In this document: one piece after another, positions 28,738 to 48,745 of the stretch
Layout of the letters: each line of letters opens with the position of its first letter
Position numbering within the stretch: the first letter of the stretch is position 1
Origin: Candidatus Aminicenantes bacterium
Lineage (GTDB): Bacteria > Acidobacteriota > Aminicenantia > Aminicenantales > UBA8522
Length of the DNA: 64,000 bases
Reading direction: 5' to 3'
NCBI GenBank assembly: GCA_017886205.1
Contig: JAFNEO010000040.1
Location: 57,346 to 121,345 of the forward strand
Program-made: the position numbers and the translations under genes
Notes under the pieces: generated by a model
Seen by the model: the letters and a program-made list of their open reading frames with translations, nothing else
Database searches by the model: none
Told to the model about the DNA's origin: nothing

Positions 28738-29003
28738 TTAATTGAATCCATCTTTCGTCTTTCAGCTCTGATACCGTAATTTCATCGCTTTTCAGCCAAA
28801 TCGTGCCCACCACGTGACCACGGAGGGCATATAGGGAGGAGTCTGCCTTCCTCGAATTGACTTCCCAAACTCGCTGTGCTAAAGCTTGAGCCATAATAGA
28901 TTGGGGAGAATCTAAAGTCAGCGAGAAGTGAACTAACAACCCACATTTGCAAACCTGACTTTGTCGCTTCCCGATCTGCGAATCACTTTAAAAGGAGGTT
29001 TTC

Positions 29004-29132
29004 ATGAAAAAGAGTTGGGGGAAGAGTGTTTTTGTCGGGGTTTCTATTTTGGCTGTCTGTGCAATGTTTTTGGCATTACAGCCGACTCCAACACTGGACA
29101 ACAGCTTCTGCACCTCCAGGGCTTCAGCATAG
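29004..29132 (+). CDS. Small hypothetical membrane peptide (42 aa)
   Basis: A strong RBS aaaggagg lies 7 nt upstream of the ATG. The product has a hydrophobic core. Confidence 0.25.
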   Translation: MKKSWGKSVFVGVSILAVCAMFLALQPTPTLDNSFCTSRASA

Positions 29133-29454
29133 GCTCAGTCGCTGATATCCTTGAAAAGGTCAAAGATAATCTTCCTAAGGCAGCCCAAGAGGCTGGTGTT
29201 GATACTATTGTGAGCAAATGGGAGGTTGCTTACAAGAACCCATCCATCGAAATCGTCGATGTGACCTCTCATTTGGTTAAGTTATTCAATCCCCCCGAAC
29301 AAACACTCAAGATAATTGAGGGACTGTCAAAGCAGCCTCCAATCTCATTATTAGAAGCGCTGCAAATTAAGGAAGGGGAGCAGGGAGAAGTCCCGACTTC
29401 CCCGAAGTCGAGGATGCCAGGAAGAGGCTGGCAGGGCTGAAAGGCATATGATAA

Positions 29455-29513
29455 GCTCGCTCGTCGGGCTCATAACCCGGAGGTCGTTGGTTCAAATCCA
29501 ACCCCCGCTACCA
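29455..29513 (+). pseudogene. 3' fragment of an initiator-type tRNA-Met(CAT). It spans the anticodon stem-loop, T arm, acceptor 3' strand and CCA, with no 5' half.
   Basis: The sequence tcgtcgggCTCATAAcccggaggtcGTTGGTTCAAATCCAACccccgctaCCA matches tRNA-fMet 3' halves. No complementary 5' acceptor strand lies upstream. It directly abuts the junction motif at 29411-29457. Confidence 0.6.
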
Positions 29514-29702
29514 TCCGAATATCAACGTGTTCCCCATATGAACGAGGCCGGTCGTTTCACGGAAGAGGCGCCGGTCCGCCGCCGTCTCGAGCCCGAGGCC
29601 GAATAGCCCCCGGAGATAGACCTCCCACGAGTGCCAAGTCGCCGGGTCACGGAAGAGAGGGGCGAAGACATCCCGGCTATGGAGGGCGTCAATGATATTC
29701 AA
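29508..29702 (-). pseudogene. N-terminal fragment (64 aa) of a phage terminase large subunit
   Basis: MNIIDALHSRDVFAPLFRDPATWHSWEVYLRGLFGL... is collinear with the N-terminus of the intact terminase at 47345 ([36 protein letters not shown]...). It is truncated exactly at the tRNA-Met fragment. Confidence 0.5.
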
Positions 29703-29803
29703 GGGTTCTCCTTCGGCCCGTCATATTTGTCCCTCGGATGTCGGATAGAATTGATTTTGCCATAGAACCAGTGATAGTATGATTTCAAAGAGGGACGGCA
29801 AAT

Positions 29804-30145
29804 ATGAATATCAAAATTAAGGACCTTACTGCGTCCGATTTCCCCGGCATTGATGAGGCGAAGTTCAACGAATGGAAGGCGCTCAAAATCAAGAGGAACC
29901 GTGAACAGAGAATTGCCTTTTATATTGGGGTTGGAATATTGCTCATCTTGAGCCTCTTGAGCGTCCTGACTGCTAAGTCCATATTCTTGTTGATATACCT
30001 GAGTTTGTTCCTGAGTTTGTTTATAATTGATGACGTTTACATAATTTATCGCAGAAGATACAAGCACTTGCGCCAACTTGGTAAGGAACTCAAGATGTCC
30101 GCCCGGTTGAGGGCAAAGAAAAAGGGCAAAGAGTTTACCGGGTAG
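29804..30145 (+). CDS. Hypothetical small membrane protein
   Basis: It has two hydrophobic helices and a basic C-terminus, and lies in a locally AT-richer segment. Confidence 0.35.
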   Translation: MNIKIKDLTASDFPGIDEAKFNEWKALKIKRNREQRIAFYIGVGILLILSLLSVLTAKSIFLLIYLSLFLSLFIIDDVYIIYRRRYKHLRQLGKELKMSARLRAKKKGKEFTG

Positions 30146-30416
30146 ACGACGCGGAATTCGGCGGGATGGAAAAGTTTGTCAGAAGGGGAGACTATATCGT
30201 TACGAACGGTTTGAAAAGCCCGGGCAAACTTCTTGATATCGGACAGGTTATCGTTGGTCTGAACCCGGTCGCCTTGCGCCACTCGATTCGGTAAAAAGCC
30301 GAGCGAAATCCCCTTCATCTACAAAGCCAATCAGATGGGGCTCGGGGAAATGGATGTCAACAGGATAAAGGTTAAGAACGTCACGGCTTAGAAACTTGGT
30401 TGGCCACTTATGACGA

Positions 30417-32255
30417 TCAAGTGGGAGGACGAAGGCGCTCGCGGAACCAGTGGCGCAGTGCCTTCATTCTCTCCTTCTGGGAAGCGGGCGCGCGTCTTCG
30501 GCAGGATGAGAGTTCGTCGCTTCCCTCGGGCGCTCCCCAACGGATTTCGGCACAATCGTTAGGGTTATAAGCCATCTCAAAAGCGTCTTTCCTTTTCAAA
30601 ATTTCTTCTACGCTCAGGATCTGCTGCGTTCCATCCGTTCTCGTATAAGTAATGGTCAATTGCCTGGCACATTTCTGCTTAAGCTCCTCGAGTTCCTGTT
30701 TTACCTGTTTCGGGTTTTTATTCTTAGGAAATTTGAAGGACTGCGGGGAGCGAATGATTTTTTCGGGAAATTTGAGGAGAGTATCCATGGCTATCAGCAG
30801 GCGCATATCCCTATTGGGCGTGGAGTAATCTTCCCACAGTCCCACGTCTTGGAAGGTAGCCGCCGCCCCTTTCGGCATGGGGATGATTTCCCCCGGATGG
30901 GCTTTCCTGTAGTCTTCTCCATTGGCCACGGACAGCACGCGGGTGACGAGCTGCTCATGAAAAGCCGCAAAAAGGTCATGAAAGGCGGTTACGGGGTCAA
31001 GCGGCTCGGGGTTGATCAGACGTTCCATGATGTCGTAGAACTGATCGCTCGCCATATTCTTTTGCTCGAGGGAGAAATTGTCATAATCCGGGCTTTCCCT
31101 GATTTCCTCGTTAGTCATGGGCCGCCAATTGTTTTTGGCCTGAATAATTGGCCGAAAAGCCTTGAATCCGGGATTGCCGATGACATTCTTGGTATTGAAA
31201 AGAAAATTTCCCGCCCAGAAACGTCTTAAACCTATCGTGCCGTCAGGCTGGGCGTCGATGGCCAAGAGCTGGCCGGGATGATCGACCGTCTGAGGAATCC
31301 ACCTGACAATGATTAGCGTATGTCCGTAAGGGTCAGCGAACACTGCTCCTGGCCTTAAGTCATTCCGGGTGAGAGGGAGGGGATAGTAATCAGAATGCTC
31401 GTCTTCGAGTAACGTTCGGGCCGTTCCTGAATGGATGGCATCCATGATGAGGCGCAAGAAGGAGTTAAAGGCCTGGGTTTCACTCTTTGACCCGATCTCA
31501 ACTGGGTTCAATGACCATTTTTGACAGGCCGGCGCTATCTCGAGAGTGCCTCTCGTGCATTTGTGAAACCCGAAGGGGAGCCTCATTTTCCAGGCAAAAT
31601 AGGCCCTCAGGAAATAGGGCGCATCGGCACAGTCCGGCTCCATGACGATAGAGGTCTTCCCGCCCGGATCATCTTCACCGAGCGAGAGCGAGTTGTAAAG
31701 AATATTCCGTTCCGGGTCCCTGGTGACTTCGTGAAGGGCTTTCCAGGAAGTATTTTCATCGGCATCATGAAAGAGAGAGTCAATCCAGGCAGAATAAAGA
31801 TTCTCGGCGGCTCTGTTCCATTCCTCTTCTATTTTCCAGATCCCCTGCCCTCTGCTGCTCGCGGAATTCGCCGTGGGCACTCTGAGCTCGCGGGTGACCA
31901 AGAATTTTCCTTCCCGCACGAGCGAGACAGTATAAGCCCCCTCATGAGTGAGCGTGGCCTCTGCACACAACCAGAAGGGAGGACCGCCGCTTCTTCTCAT
32001 TTTTGCGACAGGCAGAGTGCCCGAGGGTCCGGTGATAACAATACTCGCATCCTCTATTTTGGCCTCGGAAGCCGCCAAAATACGGAGGGTTTCTGCGGGC
32101 TTAACAATCTTGGGTGAAATCAGTAGGGCGAATTTTTCTTCCCTTTTTTCTGGGGACGTAAGACTCGAATTTGAAAATAAGTATTGTGTCCCCAGAATCA
32201 TAAGGATAGCCCACAGGAGAGCGTTCGTTGTCTTGTGGATTTCGCCCTTAGACAT
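30417..32255 (-). CDS. Hypothetical secreted or membrane-anchored protein (~612 aa from the internal ATG)
   Basis: It is a long ORF whose N-terminus (MSKGEIHKTTNALLWAILMILGTQYLF) has a TM or signal segment. No confidently recognisable domain was found. Confidence 0.45.
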   Translation of the reverse strand: MSKGEIHKTTNALLWAILMILGTQYLFSNSSLTSPEKREEKFALLISPKIVKPAETLRILAASEAKIEDASIVITGPSGTLPVAKMRRSGGPPFWLCAEATLTHEGAYTVSLVREGKFLVTRELRVPTANSASSRGQGIWKIEEEWNRAAENLYSAWIDSLFHDADENTSWKALHEVTRDPERNILYNSLSLGEDDPGGKTSIVMEPDCADAPYFLRAYFAWKMRLPFGFHKCTRGTLEIAPACQKWSLNPVEIGSKSETQAFNSFLRLIMDAIHSGTARTLLEDEHSDYYPLPLTRNDLRPGAVFADPYGHTLIIVRWIPQTVDHPGQLLAIDAQPDGTIGLRRFWAGNFLFNTKNVIGNPGFKAFRPIIQAKNNWRPMTNEEIRESPDYDNFSLEQKNMASDQFYDIMERLINPEPLDPVTAFHDLFAAFHEQLVTRVLSVANGEDYRKAHPGEIIPMPKGAAATFQDVGLWEDYSTPNRDMRLLIAMDTLLKFPEKIIRSPQSFKFPKNKNPKQVKQELEELKQKCARQLTITYTRTDGTQQILSVEEILKRKDAFEMAYNPNDCAEIRWGAPEGSDELSSCRRRAPASQKERMKALRHWFRERLRPPT

Positions 32256-32439
32256 GCCTAAGTATATAAATAAGAAATAAAACGCTGTCAAATGAGCTCA
32301 AATCGGCGAATATATCTTGAAGAGTCTAGCCTTTTTTATTCCAGCCTCCATACTGACATCGAGACCAAAGCGGGCTAAAAGAAGCCTATTGGCAAATCAA
32401 CAGGCTCATCAGTGACCGAGTAGGTGTTGCAACCGCAGT

Positions 32440-32630
32440 GCGCCCGTAGCTCAGTGGATAGAGCGGTGGACTTCGAATCAGAACGGACTGATTTTCCTAA
32501 CCTCCTGAAAACAAAGTAATAGTCAATCTTTCCAGCAAGTTACAAATTATCTCTAGGTATACGGAAGTATACGAAAGTATATGGAAGTATACCGGGGATG
32601 GTCACAATTTGGTCACAATTACATAAGCCA
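32440..32630 (+). repeat. Second truncated 5' copy of tRNA-Arg(TCG) (nt 1-40) plus a conserved arm
   Basis: It matches the 22660-22850 repeat at about 93% identity. The tRNA portion is identical to the intact gene through cttcgaatc. Confidence 0.8.
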
Positions 32631-32642
32631 AGTTAAGCGGGT

Positions 32643-33485
32643 TTAGCGAAAGTCCTGTGACCTCGTCTCCTGAATATTTTGAGGATAAAGCTGCCACGCG
32701 CCGTTTACTTTTTTGTACCGGGTCGTCATCGTTTTAGCAAACCGGCGGCCATCCCACGTATATCGATAGAAACAAATGTCAGGCGGATCGATGATGATCC
32801 TGTCATAAGAATTCTTCTCGCCTCTTGTTCGCTTGGAGATCGTCGTGCCCGCCTGCGCGACGATGATCGACCGCTTGACCGTTATGTAGTGACTTTGTAA
32901 ATCTCCCAGGTAGTCTCGGTGATAATGTCCGGACAGCAACAGATCTATGCCACAGGGTTCGAGCGCTTCCACGGCCAGGGCTCCCCGTCCCACCAGTGCG
33001 GCGTAAGGGCTATCCAGGGGAGGCAAGAACGGGTGATGGGTGACAAGCACTTTGAAAAGATGGCTGCCCGCTGCGCAAAATTTGTCGGCCAGGATCTTGA
33101 TCTGAGCCATCGAGATTCTGCCGTTCTTAAAAGCTGCTGCTCGCGCGGTATTTGCGCCAAGGATCATCAGTTCATCATCTTGAAAGACCGGGTTCAGGTC
33201 GGTCGTGATGTAATGTCTGTACCGGCTGAGCGGCGTGAGGGTGCGCCGGGCGACGTCGTAAAAGGGAATGTCGTGATTTCCCGGCACCACCAGACTGGAA
33301 ACGGGGATCTTCCGGATGAATGCGCCGGCTGCTTCAAACTGCTTCTTTCGGGCGCGTTGGGTGAGATCGCCGCTGATGACAACCACGCTCGGATGAAATC
33401 GGGCGATATCCTCCAACAATATTTCTGCGATCCGCTCGTCTTCCATCCCAAAATGGAGGTCCGAAATGTGCGCAACCACCCTCAT
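32643..33485 (-). CDS. Calcineurin-like metallophosphoesterase
   Basis: Motifs I to III are present (DLHFG, GDLTQ, GNHD). Confidence 0.7.
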   Translation of the reverse strand: MRVVAHISDLHFGMEDERIAEILLEDIARFHPSVVVISGDLTQRARKKQFEAAGAFIRKIPVSSLVVPGNHDIPFYDVARRTLTPLSRYRHYITTDLNPVFQDDELMILGANTARAAAFKNGRISMAQIKILADKFCAAGSHLFKVLVTHHPFLPPLDSPYAALVGRGALAVEALEPCGIDLLLSGHYHRDYLGDLQSHYITVKRSIIVAQAGTTISKRTRGEKNSYDRIIIDPPDICFYRYTWDGRRFAKTMTTRYKKVNGAWQLYPQNIQETRSQDFR

Positions 33486-34384
33486 GGTATGGCTATCTCC
33501 GGCGCAAACACCCGCAACGCCTTAGGCCGTATCCGGTAATGGAGAGGGGTGTCGAGCGCCATGAGTTGGCCGTCTGCGGAAACCGTGATCTGTCTGCGCC
33601 GCGTTTGCACCTGGACCTCTCTGGAAAGTATGAAAGTAAAATCTCTGTCCTGTCTCAGGCCGAGGATCGCCATCAGGAGAATTCTCAGAAAAGCGAGCCG
33701 GCCCGTATGTTTCAAAAGATAAGCACAAAGTTCTCCGCGTTCCAAAGACGTGCGGTCGCCTATGCGCAGGAATTTCATTCCATATTTATTGTTGCCGACA
33801 AACAGGAAAGGAGTGGTGCTCGTCAGGCTGCCCTCGGAAGTTTCAAGCCGGATGGTAATCAGGGGAAACCGCAAGAATACGCGGAGGGAAGCGTCCAGCA
33901 TGGCGGGCCATTTTCCACGGCCAAGGCGAATGATCTCCTGGTCTCGCTTTCGTACCGCCTTGGGATAGAGGCCAATTGACGAATTGTTGACGAAGATGCG
34001 GCCGTTAACTTCTCCGACGTCGATCTCGTGGATCTTGCCTTCAGCAATCGCACGAGCCGCCTCTTGCAGGTCGAAAGGAATTTTCAAATCCTTGGCGAGA
34101 TGGTTCAACGTGCCGAGCGGGAGAATTCCCAACGGTGTTGACGTGCCGACCAGCGCCGCAGCCACCGCGCTTATGGTGCCGTCCCCGCCGGCTGCAACAA
34201 CGGCATCGAAATGGGAAATCACAGCCTGTTTTGTAAATGCAGTCAGGTCGGAAACTCCCGGGCATACGATTTGGGCATCCACGTTTACAGCTTGGAATGC
34301 TTTCGCGATTTCTTCCGTTTTGTTTTCTGCATCGGGGGAAGATCCCTTGCCCGCACCGGGATTGAGGATGACCAGGATCTTCAT
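33482..34384 (-). CDS. Diacylglycerol/lipid kinase catalytic-domain protein (YegS/BmrU-like)
   Basis: It has the motifs ILNPGAGKG, AGGDGT and a further conserved segment. There is a 4 bp overlap with the downstream phosphoesterase gene. Confidence 0.7.
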   Translation of the reverse strand: MKILVILNPGAGKGSSPDAENKTEEIAKAFQAVNVDAQIVCPGVSDLTAFTKQAVISHFDAVVAAGGDGTISAVAAALVGTSTPLGILPLGTLNHLAKDLKIPFDLQEAARAIAEGKIHEIDVGEVNGRIFVNNSSIGLYPKAVRKRDQEIIRLGRGKWPAMLDASLRVFLRFPLITIRLETSEGSLTSTTPFLFVGNNKYGMKFLRIGDRTSLERGELCAYLLKHTGRLAFLRILLMAILGLRQDRDFTFILSREVQVQTRRRQITVSADGQLMALDTPLHYRIRPKALRVFAPEIAIP

Positions 34385-34948
34385 AATTCGTCGAGGAAAC
34401 GCCAGGATCCTAGCCTCATCCATATTTGAAAGTTCAGGGGCATACGAAATTCCTTTTTCGCGCCGCGCGCATCTGCCATCCATATGGCTTGGAAATGACG
34501 CCTCCTATTACAAAAGGATGTTATCCCCGGCGCCCGATTTGTGTCAAGAACTCAAAAAAAGGCGCGCCGGAGCTTCTGCTGCCGCGTTATCGGCCCGGAT
34601 GGCCGGGAAACCACCCGAACGAAGATAGGCCACCCGTCGCCATCAAAATAATATCACCCGCTACTCGTAATCCCCGCTCTCCTCGGCCGCCATATGCCCT
34701 ACCAGGAAGAAAATCCTGGAAAAGAAAGCTCCCGCTCCTTCGCGGAATTCTTTTATAACAAGTTCAGGCACACTTGCCCCAAATGATCCGACCCAATTAG
34801 CACGATCTGGGGCGCGGGCGCGTCACTTACAAATGTGCAGCAACTCTAGAGCTGCAATAACGGTAGACATATACGCCACGCAGACCGTATCGGCGCAATC
34901 CTCACAAGCATTCTCGATTCGTCAATGTTGATCTACAACGGTAGCGAT

Positions 34949-35599
34949 TCAGCCTGTCGCCTGCGCACCGCGACTTCCACGAAACAAAAAGGTCAACGCA
35001 AACCCCACCAGAAATCCGCCGATGTGCGCCATGTAAGCGACGCCACCCGTCTGCGCTGTGTCGGCAATCGAACCGATGCCGCTAAAAAATTGCAGAACGA
35101 TCCAGATCCCAATGACGATCAGCGCTGGCACTTGAATCACTTGTTGGCCCTGCAATACTCTGACCTTTCCTTTCGGGAACAACAAAATGTAGGCGCCGAG
35201 CACCCCCGCAATCGCCCCCGAGGCTCCCAAATTCGGCACGTTTGATCCGAGGGTAAAAGCCAATTGTGCAAAAGTTGCCGCAATCCCACAAAGTAGGTAG
35301 AAGATTGTGAACTTGATGTGCCCGAAACGGTCTTCCACGTTGTCACCGAAGATCCATAAGTAAAGCATGTTGCCTCCCAGGTGAAGCCACCCGGCATGCA
35401 TGAACATGGAAGTGAAGAGTGTCAGAAAATTAGCGAAGGGATTGGCCAGGAAGCGGCCAGGAACGAAAGCCCACCTTTTGATAAAAGCGTCACCGCCACT
35501 CAGCTCTACAAAGAAAAACAGGACGTTTAGAGCGATCAAGGCATAGGTGACCAGCGGAACAGTTCTGCGGCCGCTATTATCATCACCGATTGGGAACAT
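34949..35599 (-). CDS. Rhomboid-family intramembrane serine protease
   Basis: It has six TM helices, the catalytic GASGAIAG segment, and a downstream His in AHIGGFLVG. Confidence 0.8.
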   Translation of the reverse strand: MFPIGDDNSGRRTVPLVTYALIALNVLFFFVELSGGDAFIKRWAFVPGRFLANPFANFLTLFTSMFMHAGWLHLGGNMLYLWIFGDNVEDRFGHIKFTIFYLLCGIAATFAQLAFTLGSNVPNLGASGAIAGVLGAYILLFPKGKVRVLQGQQVIQVPALIVIGIWIVLQFFSGIGSIADTAQTGGVAYMAHIGGFLVGFALTFLFRGSRGAQATG

Positions 35600-35687
35600 A
35601 GGATTTATCTCCTTTTACCAAAGATGGGCATTTCGTTTTCTGGTTTGCCGGCTGAATGAGAGATCATGGACCGATCTTATCCAATCC

Positions 35688-35728
35688 CGTCGTTAAGGAT
35701 GATAAATCCCAGTGTCGTCAGATGTCAA
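35688..35728 (+). repeat. First copy of a 41 bp direct repeat (cgtcgttAAGGATGATAAATCcCAGTGTCGTCaGATGTCAA)
   Basis: The second copy is at 36414-36454 (about 90% identity). The pair flank the 35798-36313 gene, and the second copy sits immediately upstream of the IS110 transposase. Confidence 0.7.
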
Positions 35729-35797
35729 CCTGAGCTGAAAATATGTCAACGCAACGTGAATATGTCCTATTCTTAGCAACATGAATCTGTCCTATTT

Positions 35798-36313
35798 TCA
35801 TCTCAGGCCAAGAACAACGGGGCCGCGCTTCCAGGGATGGGTGGGCGGGGGAATGTACTTGGGCGGTTTCCTCCGGATTTTAATGGCCAACACCCTGACC
35901 GCCGGTTTAGGCCGGACCATCTCGACCTCCTTGTACTCCAGCTCCTTTCCCTTGAACCGAAACGAAAGCCTCCCATCGAACCACTCCCTGACCATGACCT
36001 TCTGCTGGCGCAGGGTCAAGGACGGCCGGCTGAGGACGAATGTCCGGCTCGTCCACTTGATGATATACCCGTTGTTGACTGTCCGGATGCCCTGGAGGCA
36101 GAAGATATCATCCTGACCTGCCCCCGCGATGCGGTGCTCGTCAACGTGACGCTGGACCATCGCATTGATGCGTTGCAGACGCTCAGATGAGAGCCCTGCG
36201 TTGCCAGGCTCTGTCACGGAAACGGCTTCACTCCACAAAACAGATTGTAGGGCGACACAGATAACGAGACAGGTTGACAATACGATATGCCTCATAATCA
36301 CACCTCCGCGCAA
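35798..36313 (-). CDS. Hypothetical secreted protein, possibly a chimeric or pseudogenised serine-hydrolase (beta-lactamase-fold) N-terminal fragment
   Basis: The N-terminal ~80 aa resemble the start of beta-lactamase or PBP-like serine hydrolases (GLSSERLQRINAMVQRHVDEHRIAGA), but the SxxK active-site motif is absent. It is bracketed by the two 41 bp direct repeats. Confidence 0.3.
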   Translation of the reverse strand: MRGGVIMRHIVLSTCLVICVALQSVLWSEAVSVTEPGNAGLSSERLQRINAMVQRHVDEHRIAGAGQDDIFCLQGIRTVNNGYIIKWTSRTFVLSRPSLTLRQQKVMVREWFDGRLSFRFKGKELEYKEVEMVRPKPAVRVLAIKIRRKPPKYIPPPTHPWKRGPVVLGLR

Positions 36314-36413
36314 ATTGCTACGTTGACAAATCTAACCAGAGGGGAATAATAAGAGTTACGTTTTCGGCTAGGCCGGTTTGATGAGCATTCATGGCACCGA
36401 TTTGGCCTCACCC

Positions 36414-36454
36414 CATCGTGAAGGATGATAAATCGCAGTGTCGTCGGATGTCAA
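36414..36454 (+). repeat. Second copy of the 41 bp direct repeat
   Basis: See the first copy at 35688-35728. Confidence 0.7.
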
Positions 36455-36531
36455 GATATTATGAAAAGCCTCCTTTTCTTGGAAGATTATATAATGGTGG
36501 AAAATCTTTTTAAGGAAAGGAGGTCAAATTC

Positions 36532-37587
36532 ATGTTTCACATCGGATTGGATATGCACTAGAAGTTTTCGAGAGTTGAGGTTATGGATGAAGAGGGTCAA
36601 GCTATCGATCAGAGAGTTTTGTACCATGATGATCAGGAGAAGATAAGGGAGTACTTTAGTCACATCGGTCAAGACGGAACAGTCACTCTCGAGGCCACAC
36701 GCAACTGGTACTGGCTCTTTGAGCTTTTGGAAGAGGAAGGGTTAAGGGTCAAGCTGGCTCATCCCTCAAAGGTCCGATTAATCGCCGAGGCCCGAATAAA
36801 GACAGATTCTATCGATGCCTCCACGCTGGCTCATCTGGAGAGAACAGGATATCTTCCTGAGGCCTATATTCCTTCCCGGGATGTTCGGGATAATCGAGAA
36901 CTTTTGCGTTACCGGCTTTCTCTGGTCAGAATCAGAACCAGCCTGAAGAATCGCATCCATGCCATCCTGGATAAACTGGGGATAAACCATCCTTTCTTTG
37001 ACCTCTTTGGGAAAAAAGGCCGAGAGTTTCTCAGGGCGCTCTCTTTGAGGGACGTTTACAGAAAGGAGCTGGACGGCTATCTGTCAACCATTGAATTTTT
37101 AGATGAGATCCTCAAAGGGATTACCAAAAGAATCCAGACGAGCCTAGAGAAGGATCCTCAAGCTGAGCTTCTGATGAGCATTCCTGGAATTTCCTATCTC
37201 ACGGCGCATCTTCTTCTCTGTGAGATTGGAGACATCCAGCGTTTCCCTTCGGCGAAGAGATTGTGTTCTTATGCCGGGATTGTTCCAGGGACTCATCAGA
37301 GTGCTGATCATATCTGGCATGGCCCCATCACCAAACAAGGCAATTGCTACACCCGCTGGGCCATGGTTGAAGCTGTTCAGAAGGCCCTTGCTCAAGATCC
37401 TGTACTGGCCATTTTTTACCAAAAACTCAAAAGGGAAAAAGGGGCGGCTAAAGCCCGAGTGGCAGTCGCTCGGAAGCTATTGGTAGCTGTCTATTATGTG
37501 CTGAAGAAAGAAGAGAGATACAAATTTAATTCGCTGACAAGAATACATCTGGGCAAGCCCAGGAGCTCAACTGGTCACTTAGAGTAG
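36532..37587 (+). mobile_element. IS110-family transposase gene interrupted by an in-frame TAG at codon 10 (36559-36561). Translation could restart at the ATG at 36583.
   Basis: The strong RBS aaggaaaggagg precedes the ATG at 36532 (MFHIGLDMH*KFSRVEVMDEEGQ...). The N-terminus has the conserved IS110 opening (IGLD..K.S.V.VMDE.G). The C-terminus has the IS110/IS116/IS902 transposase domain (PGISYLTAHLLLCEIGDIQRFPSAKRLCSYAGIVP). Confidence 0.75.
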
Positions 37588-37930
37588 ACCGATGTCAAGA
37601 TTGGGACGCCCAGAATCGAAGACAATACAGTGTGCTAAAAGCACGGATAGAAGTTTGGGATACAAAACATGAACCATAGGAAATGAGAGCAAGAAAATGA
37701 ATAAAGGAGATTGACAATATGGAGGCTTTTCATAGAAGTTGAGCTCAGAACCTTTGCATACTCGGCGGGGGGAGCCTTGAGAAGGTCGCTTCTCTGGCCC
37801 CGCGTGTCCTTCACTTCGCCCGGATTCTTAGGAGCTAGGAAGCGAGAAAACGAGGGCAGATGTGAACTTTGGACCAACCCGCTCCGACTATCTAAATGGG
37901 AAGTACTAATGCAATTCGCCGCTTCGGAGG

Positions 37931-39025
37931 ATGGAGATGAAAAAAACGATGGGGATTGACTGGAAGATGTCAGCAAAGCTCGATTTCCGATTCATTTTGA
38001 CCTCCGTGATTTTGCTGATGGGATTTTTTCACGGTCAGGCCCGGGGAGAAAGCAACGAGCTCTACCGCACCGAAGAAATAACCGTACCGGCGGGCGATTT
38101 TACCGTCGTGGGCGATCTGTACATCCCGGTGAAGGGCGCGAGACACCCGCTCGTGGTATGGGTGCATGGCTCCGGTCCCCTGACCCGCCAGATGATGGAG
38201 CCGCTCCTCATGCCTCAAATCGAGGTGTTTCTCAAGGCCGGCTTCGCTTTCTTCATCGATGACATTCCGGGCGCGGGCAGCTCGAAAGGCGCCATATCGC
38301 ATGTGTACCGCTACCGGGCCATGATCCTTTGCAAAGAAGTGGAGGCCCTGGAACGCCGCCCGGATATCGTCCCGGGACAAGTCGGCGTTGCCGGCCATAG
38401 CCAGGCGGGCGTGGTCATGCCTCTCGCCCTGAAGAGCTCGTGCGGTATCGCTTTCATGATCGCGGAGGCCTGCGTAGCCGAAAGTAACACCGAGCAGGAG
38501 TCCTATTTGCTCGAGAAGTTCATGATCTGCGAGAACTACCCGCCGGAGGAGGCCCAAAAGGCCCGGAGATTGAATCTCCAGCGGTACTATGCCGAGAACT
38601 ACAAAGATTATCGGGAGGCCGCCGAGTACATCAACAACCACCCGGCCGCCCAGCTGCTGGAGATTACCGAACCGCTGATTGCGGAGGATGAATTCACGCC
38701 GCCCGACAAATCGGCCGGCACGTTCTTGGACCCGATGGGGATCGTCGCCGAGACCAGGATCCCGGTTCTGGCCCTTTTCGGGGAAAAGGACAACAACGTG
38801 GACCCGGTTCAGGGTGTGGAGGCGTACGAGAAGGTCTTGAAAGCGGCGGGCAATGAATTCTATCGAGTCGAAACGATCCCCGCCGCCAATCATATGCTGT
38901 ACGCCACCCAGGCCGGTTGCGCTCGGGAGCTCATGGTGCAGATACAAAAAGGGAAGCCGGATTTCGCCCCCGGCACCTTGACGGTCCTCGCCGACTGGCT
39001 GGAAAAACTCAAGAAACACCTCTGA
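37931..39025 (+). CDS. Alpha/beta-hydrolase (dienelactone hydrolase/S9-like) with a signal peptide
   Basis: It has a signal-like N-terminus, a nucleophile elbow GHSQAG, and a C-terminal His in a conserved context (ANHML). Confidence 0.6.
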   Translation: MEMKKTMGIDWKMSAKLDFRFILTSVILLMGFFHGQARGESNELYRTEEITVPAGDFTVVGDLYIPVKGARHPLVVWVHGSGPLTRQMMEPLLMPQIEVFLKAGFAFFIDDIPGAGSSKGAISHVYRYRAMILCKEVEALERRPDIVPGQVGVAGHSQAGVVMPLALKSSCGIAFMIAEACVAESNTEQESYLLEKFMICENYPPEEAQKARRLNLQRYYAENYKDYREAAEYINNHPAAQLLEITEPLIAEDEFTPPDKSAGTFLDPMGIVAETRIPVLALFGEKDNNVDPVQGVEAYEKVLKAAGNEFYRVETIPAANHMLYATQAGCARELMVQIQKGKPDFAPGTLTVLADWLEKLKKHL

Positions 39026-39228
39026 TGACCCCCGCGACAATGATGTGAGGGCGGCAGGTTCCAAGCCCCGGACGTCAACTCCAGGTGACGGACGATGCGG
39101 CCCAGGACGGCATACTCCGTAAGGAAGGCGACGACCTTCATCGTGCCCGCGCACTCGGGCAGACCATCGGATCAGGCTCGCATACCGTGCAGATTATATC
39201 CGCCCACCTTCGTATTTCTAAGGTTACC

Positions 39229-39280
39229 GATGCCAGGAAGAGGCTGGCGGGGATAAAGCAATAGTGCTTTCTAGGATTAG
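39229..39280 (+). repeat. Copy 3 of the junction motif GATGCCAGGAAGAGGCTGGCGGGGATAAAGCAATAGTG
   Basis: It matches 28690-28737 and 29411-29457 and lies 180 bp upstream of the intact tRNA-Arg. Confidence 0.6.
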
Positions 39281-39380
39281 TTTTTCAAGATCATCGGATT
39301 TCCCATCCGTTGCTCTACAGGCAAATAAAATGTGTTTGTTCAACACTTTTTGATATAAGAGCGCCTTGAATTTGCTGCAT

Positions 39381-39399
39381 TTGTGACCAGATTGTGACC
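39381..39399 (+). repeat. Inverted-orientation copy (ttgtgaccagattgtgacc) of the arm repeat ggtcacaatttggtcacaatt found after the 5' tRNA fragments
   Basis: Its reverse complement is ggtcacaatctggtcacaa, compared with 22820-22840 and 32600-32620. It lies 60 bp upstream of the intact tRNA. Confidence 0.6.
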
Positions 39400-39459
39400 T
39401 GAAGTCGGTTTTACAACGGCCCCAACATGATGTAATATCTATTCCCAATTCCGAATTGC

Positions 39460-39532
39460 GCGCCCGTAGCTCAGTGGATAGAGCGGTGGACTTCGAATCC
39501 AAAGGTCGGGGGTTCAAATCCCTCCGGGCGCG
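39460..39532 (+). tRNA. tRNA-Arg, anticodon TCG (intact, 73 nt, CCA not encoded)
   Basis: The cloverleaf has the acceptor stem GCGCCCG/CGGGCGC, D arm GCTC-AGTGGATA-GAGC, anticodon loop CTTCGAA, a 5 nt variable loop, and T arm GGGGG-TTCAAAT-CCCTC. Confidence 0.85.
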
Positions 39533-39580
39533 CTCCCATATTCCCCATATAAACCCCCTTATAATCAGCATTTTGCCGAG

Positions 39581-39641
39581 TCCGTGATTTTACCCGATTT
39601 TCCGTGATTTTCCGCTTTAGGGTGGAGCCAAAGTGGAGCCA
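39581..39641 (+). promoter_or_regulatory. Putative integrase arm-type sites: the direct repeats tccgtgatttt (x2) and GGTGGAGCCAAAGTGGAGCCA
   Basis: The 21-mer at 39621-39641 recurs exactly at 54781-54801, 60 bp upstream of the att core at the other end of the element (inside the 3' end of the integrase gene). Confidence 0.45.
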
Positions 39642-39746
39642 AGTTTGGAAAATCTTATCGGAATAGTAGGGTTTAGAAACGATGACTCAAGTTGACATCC
39701 ACGCTGTTTTTATAGAAAAATATAGACTGAAACAGGAGATTGAAAG

Positions 39747-39935
39747 ATGAGCGAATTCCAACCGGGCATGGTCGTTCAATTAAAATCAGGTGGTCCCAGA
39801 ATGACCGTGAGGAGAATTGGTAGTGGAAACGTAGGCGGTGAAAACGATATCGATTGTGAATGGTTCTCCGGCGGCAAAGTTATAACGAAGAGTTTTAAGC
39901 CAGAGGTGCTTAAGGTTTTGGAAGGCCAAGAATAG
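39747..39935 (+). CDS. Small DUF2158/YodC-like protein (62 aa)
   Basis: The pattern GMVVQLKSGGPRMTV...CEWFSGGK is typical of the YodC family. The RBS caggagattgaaag is present. Confidence 0.4.
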   Translation: MSEFQPGMVVQLKSGGPRMTVRRIGSGNVGGENDIDCEWFSGGKVITKSFKPEVLKVLEGQE

Positions 39936-39961
39936 GATAAATTCCCTCCTGATCTGGTCGG

Positions 39962-40219
39962 CTATTCGCTCGAGGCGTCAATGTCCTGCTTAATGGTGGC
40001 GAGGAAATATTCCCTGATCTTCTTCGCGATATTTTCCCGGTCCTGTGGGCCTTGCATCTTGAGGATCAACGCAATATCTTTTTTCTCGCGTTCAGAAAGC
40101 GGCTGGTTATACTTTTTAAGGTTAAGATAGATTTCATAAAGTCGCAAGTGCTCATGTTCCCAGCCCGTTTGATCTACCATACTAAACCTCCTCCGTGCTC
40201 TTCTACCGGAGTATAGCAT
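39962..40219 (-). CDS. Hypothetical small protein (72-85 aa), the last gene of the minus-strand cargo cassette
   Basis: It is an intact ORF downstream of, and co-oriented with, the AT-rich genes. No recognisable domain was found. Confidence 0.35.
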   Translation of the reverse strand: MLYSGRRARRRFSMVDQTGWEHEHLRLYEIYLNLKKYNQPLSEREKKDIALILKMQGPQDRENIAKKIREYFLATIKQDIDASSE

Positions 40220-40439
40220 ACTCTGTCCTCGAGTTCGAGCCGATATATCGTGAAGAAGCGCTCAAGCGTCATACCGGAAGACCCCCCAAAAATATCTGTA
40301 CTAAGGATACAGATATTTCAGAAACGGGCCTTTCCCGCGTCTTCATGGCCCGCGATTCCGGCCAGGGTGAGCATACTGTGCAGCGCGTTCTCTTTCAGTC
40401 CCTCCCCGGAAACGTCAATGCTTTAAATTTCAATCGGGC

Positions 40440-40769
40440 TTATTCTTTTTTAGTTTCTTCTTTATCTTCCTCTATCCTATTTCCCCATTTTTCGTATAAT
40501 GCATTTCTAATCTCATGTGACAAATCCAAATTCTGTTTATGCTCTTCCCTTTTTAATTCTAAAAATATTACTGCCAGCCATACTAATTTTTCAAGTGGCA
40601 GGTTTTTCAGAATTTTGGATTGAAGAAATTCTATTTCTTTTATGTTTTCATAATTCTTCTTATCTTCTTCATTCTTTTTTCTTTCAAGATCAAGAAGCCA
40701 ATCGGCAATTGAATCGTGTGCTCTGTGCTCTTTTAAGTCTTCAAGCAAAACAAAATATTTTTTATTCAT
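40440..40769 (-). CDS. Hypothetical Lys/Glu-rich coiled-coil protein (109 aa) in the AT-rich cassette
   Basis: It lies in a segment of ~30-35% GC, against a ~60% background. The 26 bp gap after the upstream 295 aa gene suggests an operon. Confidence 0.45.
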   Translation of the reverse strand: MNKKYFVLLEDLKEHRAHDSIADWLLDLERKKNEEDKKNYENIKEIEFLQSKILKNLPLEKLVWLAVIFLELKREEHKQNLDLSHEIRNALYEKWGNRIEEDKEETKKE

Positions 40770-40795
40770 TTTCTCCCCTTTTTATTTAGACTTTT

Positions 40796-41683
40796 TTAGG
40801 CTGCCCATGAAGTCATTTTATCAAAATTTTCTTTGGCCTCAAAAATAGAATAAGGAGCCATTTTTTTTATGCCTTCGAATATAAGATGCATATCCCTATC
40901 AAAGCGTTTGAACCAAAATATCCAATCTGGATTCAACGATATTTTTCTGTTTTTCTTATTCCATGCGATTAATTTTCTGAATTCTAAATAGCTCAAATAA
41001 AGTATTAAATCGTCTCTTTTAATGTGAATTTTTCTTGATATGTCTCTTTGACCGACTTCTCGGTTTTCTTTTGATAGATAGTCGAATATTTTAAATGAAT
41101 ATTTAAGAATCGGCCTAAAGATTTTATAAAATGCCCACTCGAGATTTTCTGGAGAAAGAGACCAAGCGGGCCGAAAATTGTTTTTTGGGTACCGTCTTAT
41201 AATTTCAAACATGTTTTCTAATTCGAACATAAACCAACTTATCTCAATAGGAGCAAGTATTCTCGCATTATCTCTAGCATTTATAATTCCTGATAGATTG
41301 AATCTTTTGTCGTACCTTGAGATTATCCTGAAATGTTCCCTTTCTTTCTGCATATGATTCGTCTTCCATTTTTGCCCCGTAATTCTTTCATATAATTTTA
41401 AAATATCCTCCCATTTATGAACTCGGTTTTTATTATGACTAAAAAATTTAGAGTTTTGTCTATTCTTGCTATATGAATGAACATGAGCCAACCAATAAAG
41501 GAAAAAAGAATCCTTCTCGATTCGTATTCTCTTATTTTTAGATTTAACAAAATGAAATAGGCAGGAAGGGCAGCTACAATTTTTATGAACTAGGTCATTT
41601 TGAAAATTTTCATAAGACTTTTTAAGGTCTTTCTCTGTCACTATTTTGCCATTCGAGGTGGCCACTGACTTTTCCCCTAACAC
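40796..41683 (-). CDS. Hypothetical protein (~295 aa) with a Cys/His cluster (CSCPSC...H.H), AT-rich. It is a candidate accessory or defence gene. The start codon is uncertain.
   Basis: It is a long intact ORF in a ~30% GC segment inside a ~60% GC element. It is divergent from the XRE regulator gene with only a 16 bp gap. No recognisable family was found. Confidence 0.45.
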   Translation of the reverse strand: MLGEKSVATSNGKIVTEKDLKKSYENFQNDLVHKNCSCPSCLFHFVKSKNKRIRIEKDSFFLYWLAHVHSYSKNRQNSKFFSHNKNRVHKWEDILKLYERITGQKWKTNHMQKEREHFRIISRYDKRFNLSGIINARDNARILAPIEISWFMFELENMFEIIRRYPKNNFRPAWSLSPENLEWAFYKIFRPILKYSFKIFDYLSKENREVGQRDISRKIHIKRDDLILYLSYLEFRKLIAWNKKNRKISLNPDWIFWFKRFDRDMHLIFEGIKKMAPYSIFEAKENFDKMTSWAA

Positions 41684-41693
41684 AGATTAATCT
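41684..41693. promoter_or_regulatory. Perfect 10 bp palindrome AGATTAATCT between the divergent cassette and XRE genes (candidate operator)
   Basis: It sits exactly in the 16 bp gap between the cassette ORF start (41683) and the XRE ATG (41700). Confidence 0.3.
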
Positions 41694-41699
41694 TATCAT

Positions 41700-41912
41700 A
41701 TGCTGAAAAAAATTTCAACTAAGTCACGGTTTAGAATGATTCGAATTTTGAAGGGCTTGACCCAATTCGATCTTCAAAAAAAGAGTGGGGTATCTCATTC
41801 CACGCTCAGCATGATCGAGCGAGGACACCGTGAGCCTACTAGTAAACAAAAGAAAACATTGACTCGGGTTTTAGGCGTGCCCGAGCAATCTATTTTCGGC
41901 GAGGACGAATGA
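41700..41912 (+). CDS. XRE-family (Cro/CI-type) helix-turn-helix transcriptional regulator
   Basis: The motif LKGLTQFDLQKKSGVSHSTLSMIERG is a classic HTH_3. Confidence 0.8.
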   Translation: MLKKISTKSRFRMIRILKGLTQFDLQKKSGVSHSTLSMIERGHREPTSKQKKTLTRVLGVPEQSIFGEDE

Positions 41913-42130
41913 CTGATTACCCGCGCCGTTTTTGGACGATCGCGCAGACGGCCGATTTTTTGCAGCTCTCAATCAAATGTATATATGCTATGGCCAGCCG
42001 CGGGAGCCTACCGGTTGTCCGGATTTGTCCGGGACGGAAGAAAGGGCTGCGGATCGATGGACGCGAGCTCGAACGGCGGCTGGAGAAGCAGATCGAGGCC
42101 GGCGCGGGAACCAAGGGGCCGCAGAGATGA
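41909..42130 (+). CDS. AlpA/excisionase-family small DNA-binding protein
   Basis: TIAQTADFLQLSIKCIYAMASRGSLPVVRICPGRKKGLRIDGRELERRL matches the phage AlpA/Xis-type HTH. It shares 4 bp overlaps with both of its neighbours. Confidence 0.55.
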   Translation: MTDYPRRFWTIAQTADFLQLSIKCIYAMASRGSLPVVRICPGRKKGLRIDGRELERRLEKQIEAGAGTKGPQR

Positions 42131-43521: not shown

Positions 43522-43549
43522 AAGGACCCCAATATTCTCATCTTACTTT

Positions 43550-47338: not shown

Positions 47339-48745
<1,407 letters not shown>

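Follow-up and report, generated by a model that had tools for sequence, protein, structure and literature searches.

The interval at positions 32440–39499 of the 64-kb window (the whole stretch of Aminicenantes DNA analysed here) is probably the tRNA-proximal one of two blocks in an accretion array at a tRNA-Arg gene, an array composed of decayed, integrase-less remnants that resemble CIMEs (cis-mobilizable elements). The sequence-only reading had described a single decayed 7.1-kb island without integrase; its attL, its decay and its missing integrase stand, but the interval is not one self-contained unit and belongs as proximal block to an array starting at 22660. Most likely, we are looking at a known kind of thing in an uncommon subtype, as islands carrying the 5′ half of a tRNA are a known minority type. 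This corrects the extent of the flagged island and explains about 35 kb (22.7–57.2 kb) by a single tRNA-Arg gene that served as one integration hot spot on both of its sides.

Fragments of one tRNA-Arg gene delimit the array

A single tRNA-Arg(TCG) was called, and the fragment claimed to lie 5′ of it is identical to the intact gene throughout, from tRNA position 1 to two bases beyond the anticodon loop (Table 1). A second fragment followed by the arm, at 22660–22850, had been overlooked; its identity block spans the same part of the tRNA, and its presence turns the structure into a two-block array from 22660 to 39499. The sequences upstream of the two fragments are mutually unrelated. Three 3′ fragments to the right of the gene (54861, 56083 and 57169) had likewise been missed, and downstream of the tRNA a phage-like element together with two 3′ scars mirrors the array. 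The identity block shared with the left-hand elements comprises tRNA positions 1–40, that shared with the phage-like element positions 29–74. As in the Islander description of end-fragment islands (PMC4383910), the full tRNA gene and its two cognate fragments lie on the same replicon, all on the plus strand, and both 5′ fragments begin at tRNA position 1, upstream of the gene.

Table 1 Features of the integration hot spot, in window coordinates.
Feature	Position	Strand	Basis or remark
Distal 5′ tRNA-Arg(TCG) fragment	22660–22699	+	39/40 vs intact gene; leftmost attL core of array
Arm copy 1 (P′ arm)	22700–22850	+	stops exactly past second GGTCACAATT
Block 1, 9.6 kb, without integrase	22851–32439	.	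Pfam, tblastn
TonB-type outer-membrane protein, block 1	22930–25791		
Ser/Thr kinase with TPR repeats, block 1	25936–28689		
3′ fragment of tRNA-Met(CAT) gene, block 1	29455–29513	+	
594/624-aa protein, block 1	30417–32291	-	
Proximal 5′ tRNA-Arg(TCG) fragment	32440–32479	+	40/40 identical to 39460–39499; attL core of 7.1-kb interval
Arm copy 2 (P′ arm, 141 nt)	32480–32620	+	aligned to family
Fusion-junction segment, 40 nt past arm	32621–32660	+	resembles L050 post-arm sequence
Metallophosphoesterase (Metallophos)	32643–33485	-	Pfam
DAGK/YegS-like lipid kinase	33482–34483	-	Pfam
Rhomboid protease	34949–35599	-	Pfam
Chimeric ORF, 171 aa	35798–36313	-	by-eye reading; nothing in Pfam
IS110-family transposase gene	36532–37587	+	Pfam
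Alpha/beta hydrolase (S15/S9-like)	37931–39025	+	Pfam
Transposase-like C-terminal remnant, frameshifted	39074–39210	-	...EVDPxxCPxxGGTMKVIAFL...
Tail of TPR-family protein	39229–39264	+	
Conserved tRNA-upstream module, candidate P arm of attR	39288–39438	+	family sequence
Intact tRNA-Arg(TCG)	39460–39533	+	ARAGORN
Phage-like element, 15.3 kb, usual 3′-half type	39534–54860	+	
Primase/helicase of phage-like element	41932–43521		
Large terminase of phage-like element	47345–48745		
Tyrosine integrase of phage-like element	53722–54846		
attR of phage-like element, 46-nt 3′ tRNA fragment	54861–54906	+	starts three bases before anticodon loop
Two older remnants	54914–57194	+	3′ fragments 56083–56137, 57169–57194

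A conserved arm follows the 5′ fragments

The repeat GGTCACAATTTGGTCACAATT reported behind the 5′ fragment was located at 32600–32620, where a GGTCACAATT pair closes arm copy 2. The same arm contains the near-invariant stretch CTAACCTCCTGAAAACAAAGTAATAGTCAATCTT and four GTATAC-type repeats at 10-nt spacing (32557–32592), and the two 191-nt fragment-plus-arm modules of the window agree at 172/191 positions. Exact copies of GGTCACAAT occur five times in the window, all at three arm sites (22820/22831, 32600/32611 and 39391); by our own arithmetic, about 0.5 exact 9-mer copies would be expected by chance in the 128 kb of the two strands.

A 20-mer of the arm matches 55 metagenome and 12 genome contigs, with Aminicenantes as the named hosts. 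Based on this one 20-mer, the arm directly follows the 5′ part of a tRNA-Arg(TCG or CCG) in 54/55 metagenome and 10/12 genome contigs, and in almost all matches this 5′ part ends in the anticodon loop. Copies of the inverted repeat at many unrelated loci had been named as evidence against an island; the 20-mer is not local, and it lies almost always directly behind a tRNA-Arg 5′ part. In a 49-sequence family alignment, 32480–32620 aligns over its full length, both GGTCACAAT sites included, so that attL is retained, as in a CIME, and conservation breaks off sharply past the second GGTCACAAT, in the two window copies as well as family-wide. The 141 nt behind the fragment are a conserved arm shared by a widespread family of elements, and the left end of the 7.1-kb interval is a genuine attL.

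An intact relative and intervals without integrase

An intact island with an integrase exists on contig L060, a relative with a complete element of the same arm family. This element starts with the 5′ fragment (38/40) and the arm, continues through 10 kb of cargo to an excisionase-like HTH_17 gene and an integrase (Phage_integrase match, 1.7e-38), and has GGTCACAATTTGGTCACAA at the 3′ end of the integrase; the intact tRNA-Arg(TCG) follows 50 nt further on. GGTCACAAT pairs lie on both arms, one where the integrase gene ends (3′) and one within the P′ arm, which gives the family the layout of a lambda-type attP. The phage-like element has this layout as well, with GTGGAGCCA, and the window holds no cognate integrase of the GGTCACAAT type. 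L098 repeats the order integrase, GTCACA pair and intact tRNA-Arg. L060 is, however, the single exemplar with both ends plus an integrase, which counts against our reading.

As had been claimed for the island, no integrase was found in the left-hand array: Pfam searches of all ORFs at 22.9–39.2 kb gave none, and tblastn with two integrases matched 53722–54846 only and nothing at 22660–39460. Neither block contains an integrase gene within its interval, and both would consequently fail the Islander integrase filter. Apart from IS debris, no mobile-element-type gene was detected at 22.7–39.5 kb, a further point against our reading. Both blocks are decayed and integrase-less and resemble CIMEs. 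Integrase-less intervals bounded in the same way were found in L067 (1.4 kb), L092 (3.2 kb), L029 (3.6 kb) and L073 (4.9 kb). Fragment and intact gene of L092 are each preceded by the same P arm with its GGCACAATTTGGTCACAATT pair.

Nine intervals from an arm to the next 5′ half or tRNA could be resolved (both in the window and one each in L030, L067, L092, L029, L073, L036 and L060), and 8/9 lack an integrase; the L036 interval has an integrase C-terminal fragment only, about 3 kb beyond the arm, and only L060 carries an intact one. Such counts would also suit an active, integron-like capture platform, on which fragment-plus-arm modules are working sites, a remote integrase moves integrase-less blocks, and the window blocks are current cassettes. 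Arm-adjacent genes are ordinary cellular ones (kinases, histidine kinases, peptidases, reductases), three arm ends lie within 3.5 kb of L030, and the left partners of block 1 differ between the window and L038. We nevertheless consider this quite unlikely: no trans-acting integrase was identified within the window, the pseudogenised contents fit decay and not a system under maintenance, an excision product was not seen, and the P-arm side is heterogeneous, so the blocks have no uniform second site. A lineage-wide Aminicenantes platform for gene capture upstream of tRNA-Arg genes is likewise unlikely; on it, the near-invariant 141-nt arm joined to the displaced tRNA 5′ half would be a reusable site, integrases encoded elsewhere would swap short blocks of ordinary cellular genes without integrase, and 41% identical sister integrases would build mirror arrays to either side of one anticodon loop. 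Integron gene cassettes were rejected, as there is no IntI-type gene and what delimits the blocks is a tRNA fragment plus arm, not attC; an Rfam scan gave tRNA only.

The tRNA-upstream module as candidate attR side

The reverse-complement repeat reported 60 nt before the tRNA is present: 39381–39399 reads ggtcacaatCtggtcacaa, with 18/19 matches and one mismatch, and forms the inverted pair TTGTGACCagaTTGTGACC within the conserved upstream module. The module also encloses a promoter-like TTTACA-17-TAATAT (39410–39438), and it is 89% identical to the L045 sequence upstream of a displaced tRNA-Arg(CCG) 5′ fragment. The inverted pair, immediately upstream of the tRNA promoter, is shared at the same position by L067, L062, L029, L058 and L059, and L040, L045 and L088 have single copies there; it is no chance match.

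On this candidate attR side of the 7.1-kb interval the core is intact, but the GGTCACAAT pair of 39288–39438 is inverted, unlike in L060, L030 and L092, where the second copy has direct orientation. The proposed attL/attR pair with inverted arm sites is supported at the attL end; the inverted arrangement is not, the arm pair next to the integrase of the intact L060 being direct. The difference between the window P arm (inverted pair and strong promoter) and that of L060 (direct pair at the integrase 3′ end) counts against our reading.

Two inverted copies could alternatively be the GGTCACAAT-type terminal repeats (32600–32620 and 39381–39399) of a transposon inserted between the arm and the tRNA promoter, and in our own reading their likeness extends a few bases past the pair (GTAtACCG...GGTCACAAT versus its partner). 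This is highly improbable: no transposase for such ends is present, only the nonsense-mutated IS110 and fragments, no target-site duplication flanks 32600 and 39399, and the direct second copy in L060, L030 and L092 is part of the integrase 3′ end or the P arm. Moreover, the P arm of phage lambda also has arm-type sites in both orientations. With no intact transposase and no target-site duplication, membership among terminal-inverted-repeat transposons was rejected.

Block 2 is a mosaic

Pfam calls support the cargo originally listed for the 7.1-kb interval (metallophosphoesterase, YegS-like kinase, rhomboid protease, IS110 transposase, hydrolase). The nonsense codon in the IS110 gene is an in-frame TAG at 36559–36561, after MFHIGLDMH, and copies of GATGTCAAGAT flank the gene (36447–36457 and 37591–37601). 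The odd chimeric secreted protein was recovered by reading the translation by eye; the 171-aa ORF, in which Pfam found no domain, reads as a putative signal peptide and serine hydrolase start fused to a transposase-like tail. The fusion point lies at TGACCTGCCCCC (36114–36125), a motif found again at breakpoints in L030, L031 and L078 and likely an IS terminus. The motif of the frameshifted remnant near the right end is one that we take to be from IS91-family transposases.

The rhomboid-DAGK-Metallophos trio is 88–92% identical at the protein level to a chromosomal trio of relative L024 and represents ordinary chromosomal synteny in L017, L018 and L024. Core status of the gene block in relatives had also been named as evidence against an island; the trio is chromosomal in relatives. 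In L024, the closest of them, an unoccupied tRNA-Arg(CCG) follows 4.4 kb downstream of the trio and with the relative orientation seen in the window, so that the trio could be native DNA, which speaks against our reading. Homology to L024 begins at 32661, within the last Metallophos codons and with the stop codon clipped, which marks the join of arm and trio as a fusion. This join is of the deletion type and is no natural element boundary, again counting against our reading. With a chromosomal trio and an arm fused to it at a deletion junction, the cargo of block 2 is a mosaic and not an intact imported island.

These observations could also be explained by orphan attL scars: L060-type elements integrated, and deletions together with IS-mediated or homologous rearrangement removed their bodies and fused fragment-plus-arm modules to chromosomal genes. 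The 7.1 kb would then never have been one discrete element, and the intact tRNA with its upstream module would be a resident gene. The chromosomal trio in L017, L018 and L024, with the same topology upstream of tRNA-Arg in L024, agrees with this, as do the clipped stop codon at 32660/32661, the IS remnants, IS110 copy and truncated gene tails that fill 35.6–39.3 kb, and the kinase-TPR paralogues, present within block 1 as well as in the core on its left, as substrates for homologous exchange. We regard these scars as possible, if somewhat unlikely. Conservation ends at the same base past the second GGTCACAAT(T) in the window copies and the family, which a functional boundary would explain better than random deletions happening repeatedly; 39288–39438 is itself family sequence, found on other contigs upstream of displaced 5′ fragments that belong to a different isoacceptor; and L092 has a clean block without integrase, its two ends bearing matching P arms.

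Block 1 and signs of exchange at the core

The distal block also carries small ORFs. Over the first 350 nt of this block, identity to L038 is 95%; L038 shares the arm of block 1 and its right flank (95% identical) but has another left flank, a constellation that points to exchange at the core. The tRNA-Met(CAT) fragment inside the block is the scar of a separate integration; it is preceded by the C-terminal tail remnant of a TPR-family protein (29371–29451).

The phage-like element on the opposite side

To the right of the gene, the phage-like element also bears HTH genes and a tail protein. It has a mirror layout and its own arm repeat, GGTGGAGCCAAAGTGGAGCCA, at 39621–39641 and 54781–54801, and shows how its integrase group organises attP. 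Among the older remnants behind it, a 106-nt arm is duplicated at 54914–55019 and 56135–56240 (90% identical) with TGTCCACAC pairs. The 53722 integrase is 41% identical to the cognate-type integrase, and the arms on the left lack its arm repeat GTGGAGCCA. As it uses different arm repeats, it is unlikely to be the helper of the left-hand blocks.

Proposed mechanism and comparison with known systems

Under our preferred reading, tyrosine-integrase elements would have built the array by crossing over in the tRNA-Arg anticodon loop, their attP carrying the tRNA 5′ half, contrary to most such elements. Upon integration, the host 5′ half would become a dead fragment joined to the element's 141-nt P′ arm (attL), and a working gene would be rebuilt by joining the host 3′ half to the upstream module and 5′ half brought in by the element (attR). 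The next integration into the rebuilt gene would shift the earlier block leftwards. Both blocks would later have lost integrase and excisionase, and deletions, IS insertions and, probably, recombination with paralogues on the chromosome would have remodelled them. The end product would be a CIME-like remnant with attL intact, attR possibly intact, and without recombination genes. Loss of the integrase with retained att sites, followed by accretion, has been described for CIMEs (PMC5704250). The island had been suggested to be immobile or mobilised in trans by the 53722 integrase: it is most likely immobile unless a cognate GGTCACAAT-type integrase comes from elsewhere, and trans-mobilisation by 53722 is unlikely given the 41% identity and the missing GTGGAGCCA on the left. 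The sequences show the att anatomy, an arm conserved throughout the family, one intact exemplar, the missing integrase and the decay. An empty site was not found, relatives L080 (85%, right flank) and L095 (94%, left flank) having other neighbours, which counts against our reading; we can only infer past mobility, as we do the order of events, the arrival of the gene content with the element and any present-day mobility.

Islander tRNA/tmRNA islands of the 5′-fragment type (PMC4383910) share with the array a full tDNA and cognate terminal fragment in the same orientation, a 5′ fragment upstream of the gene, crossover in the anticodon loop, tandem arrays and, in the intact relative L060, an integrase kept inside the island. 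Unlike these, the same tRNA gene here also bears a 3′-type array on its opposite side, by a 41% identical integrase. The ICESt1/ICESt3-related CIMEs of Streptococcus thermophilus (PMC5704250) have likewise lost integration and transfer genes but kept their att sites, and stack in tandem through later integration into the regenerated target. They occupy the 3′ end of a protein gene or a tRNA gene, and their mobilisation in cis was shown by experiment, whereas the window stack grows on the 5′ side of its tRNA gene and has an attR that is possibly intact.

A conserved attachment-site arm marks 5′-half-carrying islands in uncultured, sediment-dwelling Aminicenantes. Most of these copies would escape island finders that depend on an integrase, since that gene has usually been lost. 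Elements of the 5′ and 3′ type with related integrases at one anticodon loop also provide a natural case for asking how an attP switches the tRNA side that it carries; the basic picture of tRNA-targeted integration stays unchanged.

The attP of phage lambda resembles that of this family in its short repeated arm-type sites 60–140 nt from the core on both arms, its total length of about 250 nt and the abutting integrase gene. The arm motif GGTCACAAT presumably resembles the lambda arm-type consensus, which we take to be (C/A)AGTCACTAT. Unlike in lambda, the target is a tRNA anticodon loop, the attP includes the 5′ half of a tRNA and, for one subtype, also a promoter, and the sites are predicted from sequence. 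The tandem ssrA-specific islands of Dehalococcoides (PMC3146451) share site-specific island integration at a single small-RNA gene.

A two-block array upstream of the tRNA-Arg gene

The 7.1-kb interval upstream of the tRNA-Arg gene (32440–39532) is a real structure of a known kind, and the sequence-only reading of it was mostly right. It is probably a decayed remnant resembling a cis-mobilizable element (CIME; att sites kept, integrase lost): of the two blocks in an accretion array that was built up by elements carrying the tRNA 5′ half, it would be the proximal one, with remodelled content. ARAGORN detected a single tRNA-Arg(TCG) gene, whose first 40 bases (39460–39499) recur without mismatch at 32440–32479, from tRNA position 1 to two bases past the anticodon loop (...GGACTTCGAATC); directly after this identity the two sequences part ways. 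The proposed inverted repeat was confirmed, with GGTCACAATTTGGTCACAATT at 32600–32620 and its reverse complement, carrying one mismatch, at 39381–39399, 60 nt upstream of the tRNA. GGTCACAAT has five exact copies in the window, and each of them lies at such an arm site. While the att anatomy at 32440 is real, the description as a single island had overlooked a second fragment plus arm, which makes the region an array of two blocks. This second 5′ fragment is followed by the same 141-nt arm (the P′ arm, at attL), and both arm copies stop at the same point, after the second GGTCACAATT (22850); the two 191-nt fragment-plus-arm modules match at 172/191 positions. An inverted, degenerate fragment-plus-arm at 39290–39325 (−) was also considered and dropped, since its local alignment score was not above that of shuffled sequences.

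Features of the window at and around the tRNA-Arg(TCG) gene
Feature	Position	Length	Remark
Intact tRNA-Arg(TCG)	39460–39533		
Second tRNA-Arg 5′ fragment	22660–22699		39/40
Phage-like element	39534–54860	15.3 kb	Primase/helicase, large terminase, tail protein
Tyrosine integrase of the phage-like element	53722–54846		
tRNA-Arg 3′ fragment bounding the phage-like element	54861–54906	46 nt	Starts three bases before the anticodon loop
Further tRNA-Arg 3′ fragment	56083–56137		From the T stem
Further tRNA-Arg 3′ fragment	57169–57194		
ORF in the 7.1-kb interval	35798–36313	171 aa	
tRNA-Met(CAT) 3′ fragment	29455–29513		Inside block 1; Rfam tRNA, 25.6 bits
Protein-tail remnants	29371–29451, 39229–39264		
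Transposase-type fragments	39074–39210 (−), 22545–22610		
Copies of the AGTGTCGTCRGATGTCAA motif	35670–35741, 36396–36467, 37581–37601, 32270–32300		
Zinc-ribbon Ser/Thr kinase with TPR repeats	16167–18707		Pfam
Three adjacent ORFs	8494–16177	~845–860 aa each	
Further kinase-TPR gene	25936–28689		Inside block 1

An intact family member and its integrase

An intact family member exists elsewhere: contig L060 has both ends plus a tyrosine integrase. Its order is tRNA-Arg(TCG) 5′ fragment (38/40), arm and some 10 kb of cargo, then one HTH_3 and one HTH_17 gene (the latter of excisionase type), followed by the tyrosine integrase (Phage_integrase, 1.7e-38) with GGTCACAATTTGGTCACAA at its 3′ end, a 50-nt spacer and the intact tRNA-Arg(TCG). 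From this layout, the L060 attP consists of integrase, arm pair, tRNA 5′ half, core and 141-nt arm, and so carries the tRNA 5′ half. In a further contig, L098, integrase, GTCACA pair and intact tRNA-Arg(CCT) follow in the same order within the stretch analysed, which does not reach the left end. L098 was also the sole find of a two-sequence integrase profile (35% identity), and close relatives of the L060 integrase were not found in IMG/VR. Among the islands in Islander, a database of tRNA/tmRNA-gene islands, 159 have a 5′ fragment and 3760 a 3′ fragment, and there are 125 tandem arrays (PMC4383910).

The phage-like element to the right of the tRNA has the same layout as L060 but carries the tRNA 3′ half. 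Its integrase had been suggested to mobilise the island in trans; this is unlikely, because its arm motif GTGGAGCCA is confined to its own two arms and it is only 41% identical (E 1e-83) to the cognate-type integrase of L060.

A two-sided integration hot spot

One copy of the arm repeat of the phage-like element (GGTGGAGCCAAAGTGGAGCCA) lies in the integrase 3′ end (54781) and the other 88 nt past the tRNA (39621). To the right of this element, a 106-nt arm is repeated at 54914–55019 and 56135–56240 (90% identical), with TGTCCACAC pairs. This arm and the two further 3′ fragments, all within 54861–57194, were left behind by two or more older elements, in which crossover point and arm motif differ. 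Left-hand and right-hand identity blocks overlap solely in the anticodon stem-loop (GGACTTCGAATC). With 5′ fragments stacked on the left and 3′ fragments on the right, the tRNA gene is thus a two-sided hot spot.

Besides that, a T-arm-like stretch within the second right-hand remnant (56262–56320, ggtcgcgagttcgagtctcgtc...) resembles the 3′ part of another tRNA. In L080 (Ga0436463_0000035), a contig with the same tRNA-Arg(TCG) and a right-flank core gene of 85% protein identity to that of the window, the tRNA is followed at 6736–9223 by a 91% identical copy of the left arm of the phage-like element, then by a mere 2.4 kb of element and by a 3′ fragment; this is the right-hand element family of the window in decayed form.

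Spread and conservation of the arm

The arm 20-mer (AACAAAGTAATAGTCAATCT) matched 55 metagenome contigs, and in 54/55 the whole module of ~140 nt stands directly after a tRNA-Arg 5′ part ending in the anticodon loop (TCG or CCG isoacceptor). It also matched 12 species-representative genomes, 10 of them with real arms: five are named Candidatus Aminicenantes (one a 4.28 Mb chromosome) and five carry a doubtful placeholder label. Homologues of the window core genes are likewise named Aminicenantes or Aminicenantales, and the window itself corresponds to JGI contig Ga0494796_000016. An alignment of 49 arms showed a near-invariant stretch of ~34 nt, GTATAC-type repeats (three or four, spaced 10 nt apart) and a GGTCACAAT pair at the arm end, directly after which conservation ends. 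The arm is the conserved end of a widespread element family, with the repeats, phased at 10–11 nt, as candidate protein-binding sites. An IHF site at TATCAGCAATTTA in the arm consensus was rejected, because TTCCAG stands there in the window's own arms and in about a third of the family.

The arm matched no INPHARED phage or PLSDB plasmid, and neither the 20-mer nor a 19-mer across the fragment/arm junction had a match in IMG/VR viral contigs. The GGTCACAATNTGGTCACAA pattern gave 14 matches in viral contigs, most of them unrelated; the match in L003, a low-GC phage, stems from a tandem array with an 11-bp unit. Another of the 14 stands at the end of a viral contig (L005, IMG/VR 3300028832_002630, 4684–4837), where a tRNA-His is followed 60 nt on by TTGGTCACAATTTGGTCACAAT, the same arm-type pair beside a different tRNA. 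Apart from noise, an Rfam scan of 22400–40000 at E≤1 returned only the tRNA and a weak relic of tRNA-Met, and the arm matched no RNA family.

In a second class of loci (L033, L069, L036, L056/L066, L071, L078, L087, L053/L091 and L094), no true tRNA-Arg 5′ half stands before the arm, its place being taken by a degenerate look-alike (GGGGAGTAGTCT...ATAGAGCG...). The look-alike carries a locus-specific pair of 9–10 nt repeats (GTCAC, GTTAC, CGTTCC, TGGCAC), and at several of these loci an intact tRNA of other identity (Asn, Arg) is found ~115 nt upstream of look-alike and arm. These loci may reflect target switching or nested integration.

On the tRNA-upstream side (candidate attR, P arm), the 150 nt before the tRNA (39288–39438) are 89% identical to the sequence preceding a displaced tRNA-Arg(CCG) fragment in contig L045 and 76–79% identical to their counterparts in L048, L067, L062 and L040, and are thus a family module and not unique host DNA. 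Within them, an inverted pair stands immediately before a promoter-like TTTACA-17-TAATAT, an arrangement also found in L067, L062, L029, L058 and L059. Single copies occur at this place in L040, L045 and L088, while the pair is direct in L060, L030 and L092, the last with an extra inverted copy further upstream. Both orientations therefore exist on the P-arm side, as in phage lambda, whose P arm has arm-type sites in both orientations.

Blocks without integrase

As had been noted for the 7.1-kb interval, there is no integrase in it, and the whole stretch from 22.7 to 39.5 kb is free of one, so that both window blocks (7.0 and 9.8 kb) lack it. The same holds for the intervals from arm to next intact tRNA-Arg in L067 (1.4 kb), L092 (3.2 kb), L029 (3.6 kb) and L073 (4.9 kb); L036 has an integrase C-terminal fragment alone, about 3 kb past the arm. 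Integrase-less blocks are the rule in the arm family. L092 is the clean case of such a block with both att sites: one P arm sequence (GGCACAATTTGGTCACAATT at −74 to −55) stands before the displaced fragment and again before the intact gene. This picture fits the published definition of a CIME, and also that of accretion, in which a later element integrates into the regenerated target (PMC5704250). Three arm ends lie within 3.5 kb in L030. An active cassette-like platform would be another reading of such arrays, possible but unsupported, and we consider it improbable.

Origin of the gene content

The cargo was identified as described (metallophosphoesterase, YegS/DAGK-like kinase, rhomboid protease, IS110 transposase and alpha/beta hydrolase), including the IS110 nonsense codon, an in-frame TAG at 36559–36561. 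The 171-aa ORF, which had been called a chimeric secreted protein, indeed reads as a fusion, in which the N-terminus of a secreted hydrolase is joined at TGACCTGCCCCC to a tail resembling a transposase; it had no Pfam match. TGACCTGCCCCC recurs at breakpoints in other contigs and is likely an IS terminus.

Evidence on the 7.1 kb as an imported island is mixed. The main rival explanation, which we hold to be rather unlikely, is that the fragment-plus-arm scars alone derive from elements, the genes between being reshuffled native DNA. Part of the block is chromosomal in relatives: the rhomboid-DAGK-Metallophos trio is found in L024 (88–92% protein identity), where an unoccupied tRNA-Arg(CCG) follows 4.4 kb downstream in the same relative orientation as in the window, and the DAGK-Metallophos pair is found in L017 and L018 (75–85%). 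Homology to L024 ends at 32661, within the last Metallophos codons, and the 40 nt between arm and this point resemble the post-arm sequence of L050, indicating a deletion-type fusion between arm and trio. Debris makes up the remainder of the block, namely a remnant of an IS, the IS110 copy with its nonsense codon, a transposase-like remnant with a frameshift and the final 12 codons of a gene for a TPR-family protein. A transposon reading is disfavoured. In L038, the block-1 arm and right flank of the window (95% identical) stand behind a different left flank, an arrangement that favours exchange at the core. The search for an empty site returned only relatives with other neighbours: via the right-flank core gene it led to L080, with the same tRNA, a remnant of the same phage-like family and an unrelated upstream region, and via the left-flank gene to L095, which diverges ~15 nt past the stop codon into a transposase-like fragment.

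Recurrent debris beside arms and tRNA genes

The tRNA-Met piece of block 1 is joined directly to the arm end in L034 and L087, pointing to a tRNA-Met-targeting element family interleaved with the arm family. Short pieces of a conserved protein tail (...WKDADPGxxEVEDARKRLAGLK*) turn up repeatedly a little before tRNA genes, in the window as well as in L028, L035, L051, L052, L058, L073, L085 and L087; the same tail ends large proteins in L058 (810 aa) and L085 (1058 aa). Fragments of one transposase type (...EVDPxxCPxCGGTMKVIAFLTDYAVVxRII...) recur beside arms and att sites, also in L095 (6620–6823) and, just after the arm, in L025, L058 and L067, with identical final ~85 codons adjoining the arm directly in L025 and L058. 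By this motif, the fragments, including the frameshifted window remnant, would belong to a putative IS91-family (rolling-circle) transposase. On both sides of the IS110 copy stands a repeated motif without coding content (...AGTGTCGTCRGATGTCAA..., related to GTCAAATTGAGCTCAAGT), which is also present before tRNA-Arg genes of relatives (L024, L040) and may be the IS110 target sequence.

The L058 ORF falls into a blastp cluster including Ser/Thr-kinase/TPR proteins, and such genes are the commonest arm neighbours. In the window, the three adjacent ORFs are similar in size to the zinc-ribbon kinase and are assumed to be its paralogues, and a further kinase-TPR gene lies inside block 1. Such kinase-TPR genes would be possible substrates for recombination between array and chromosome.
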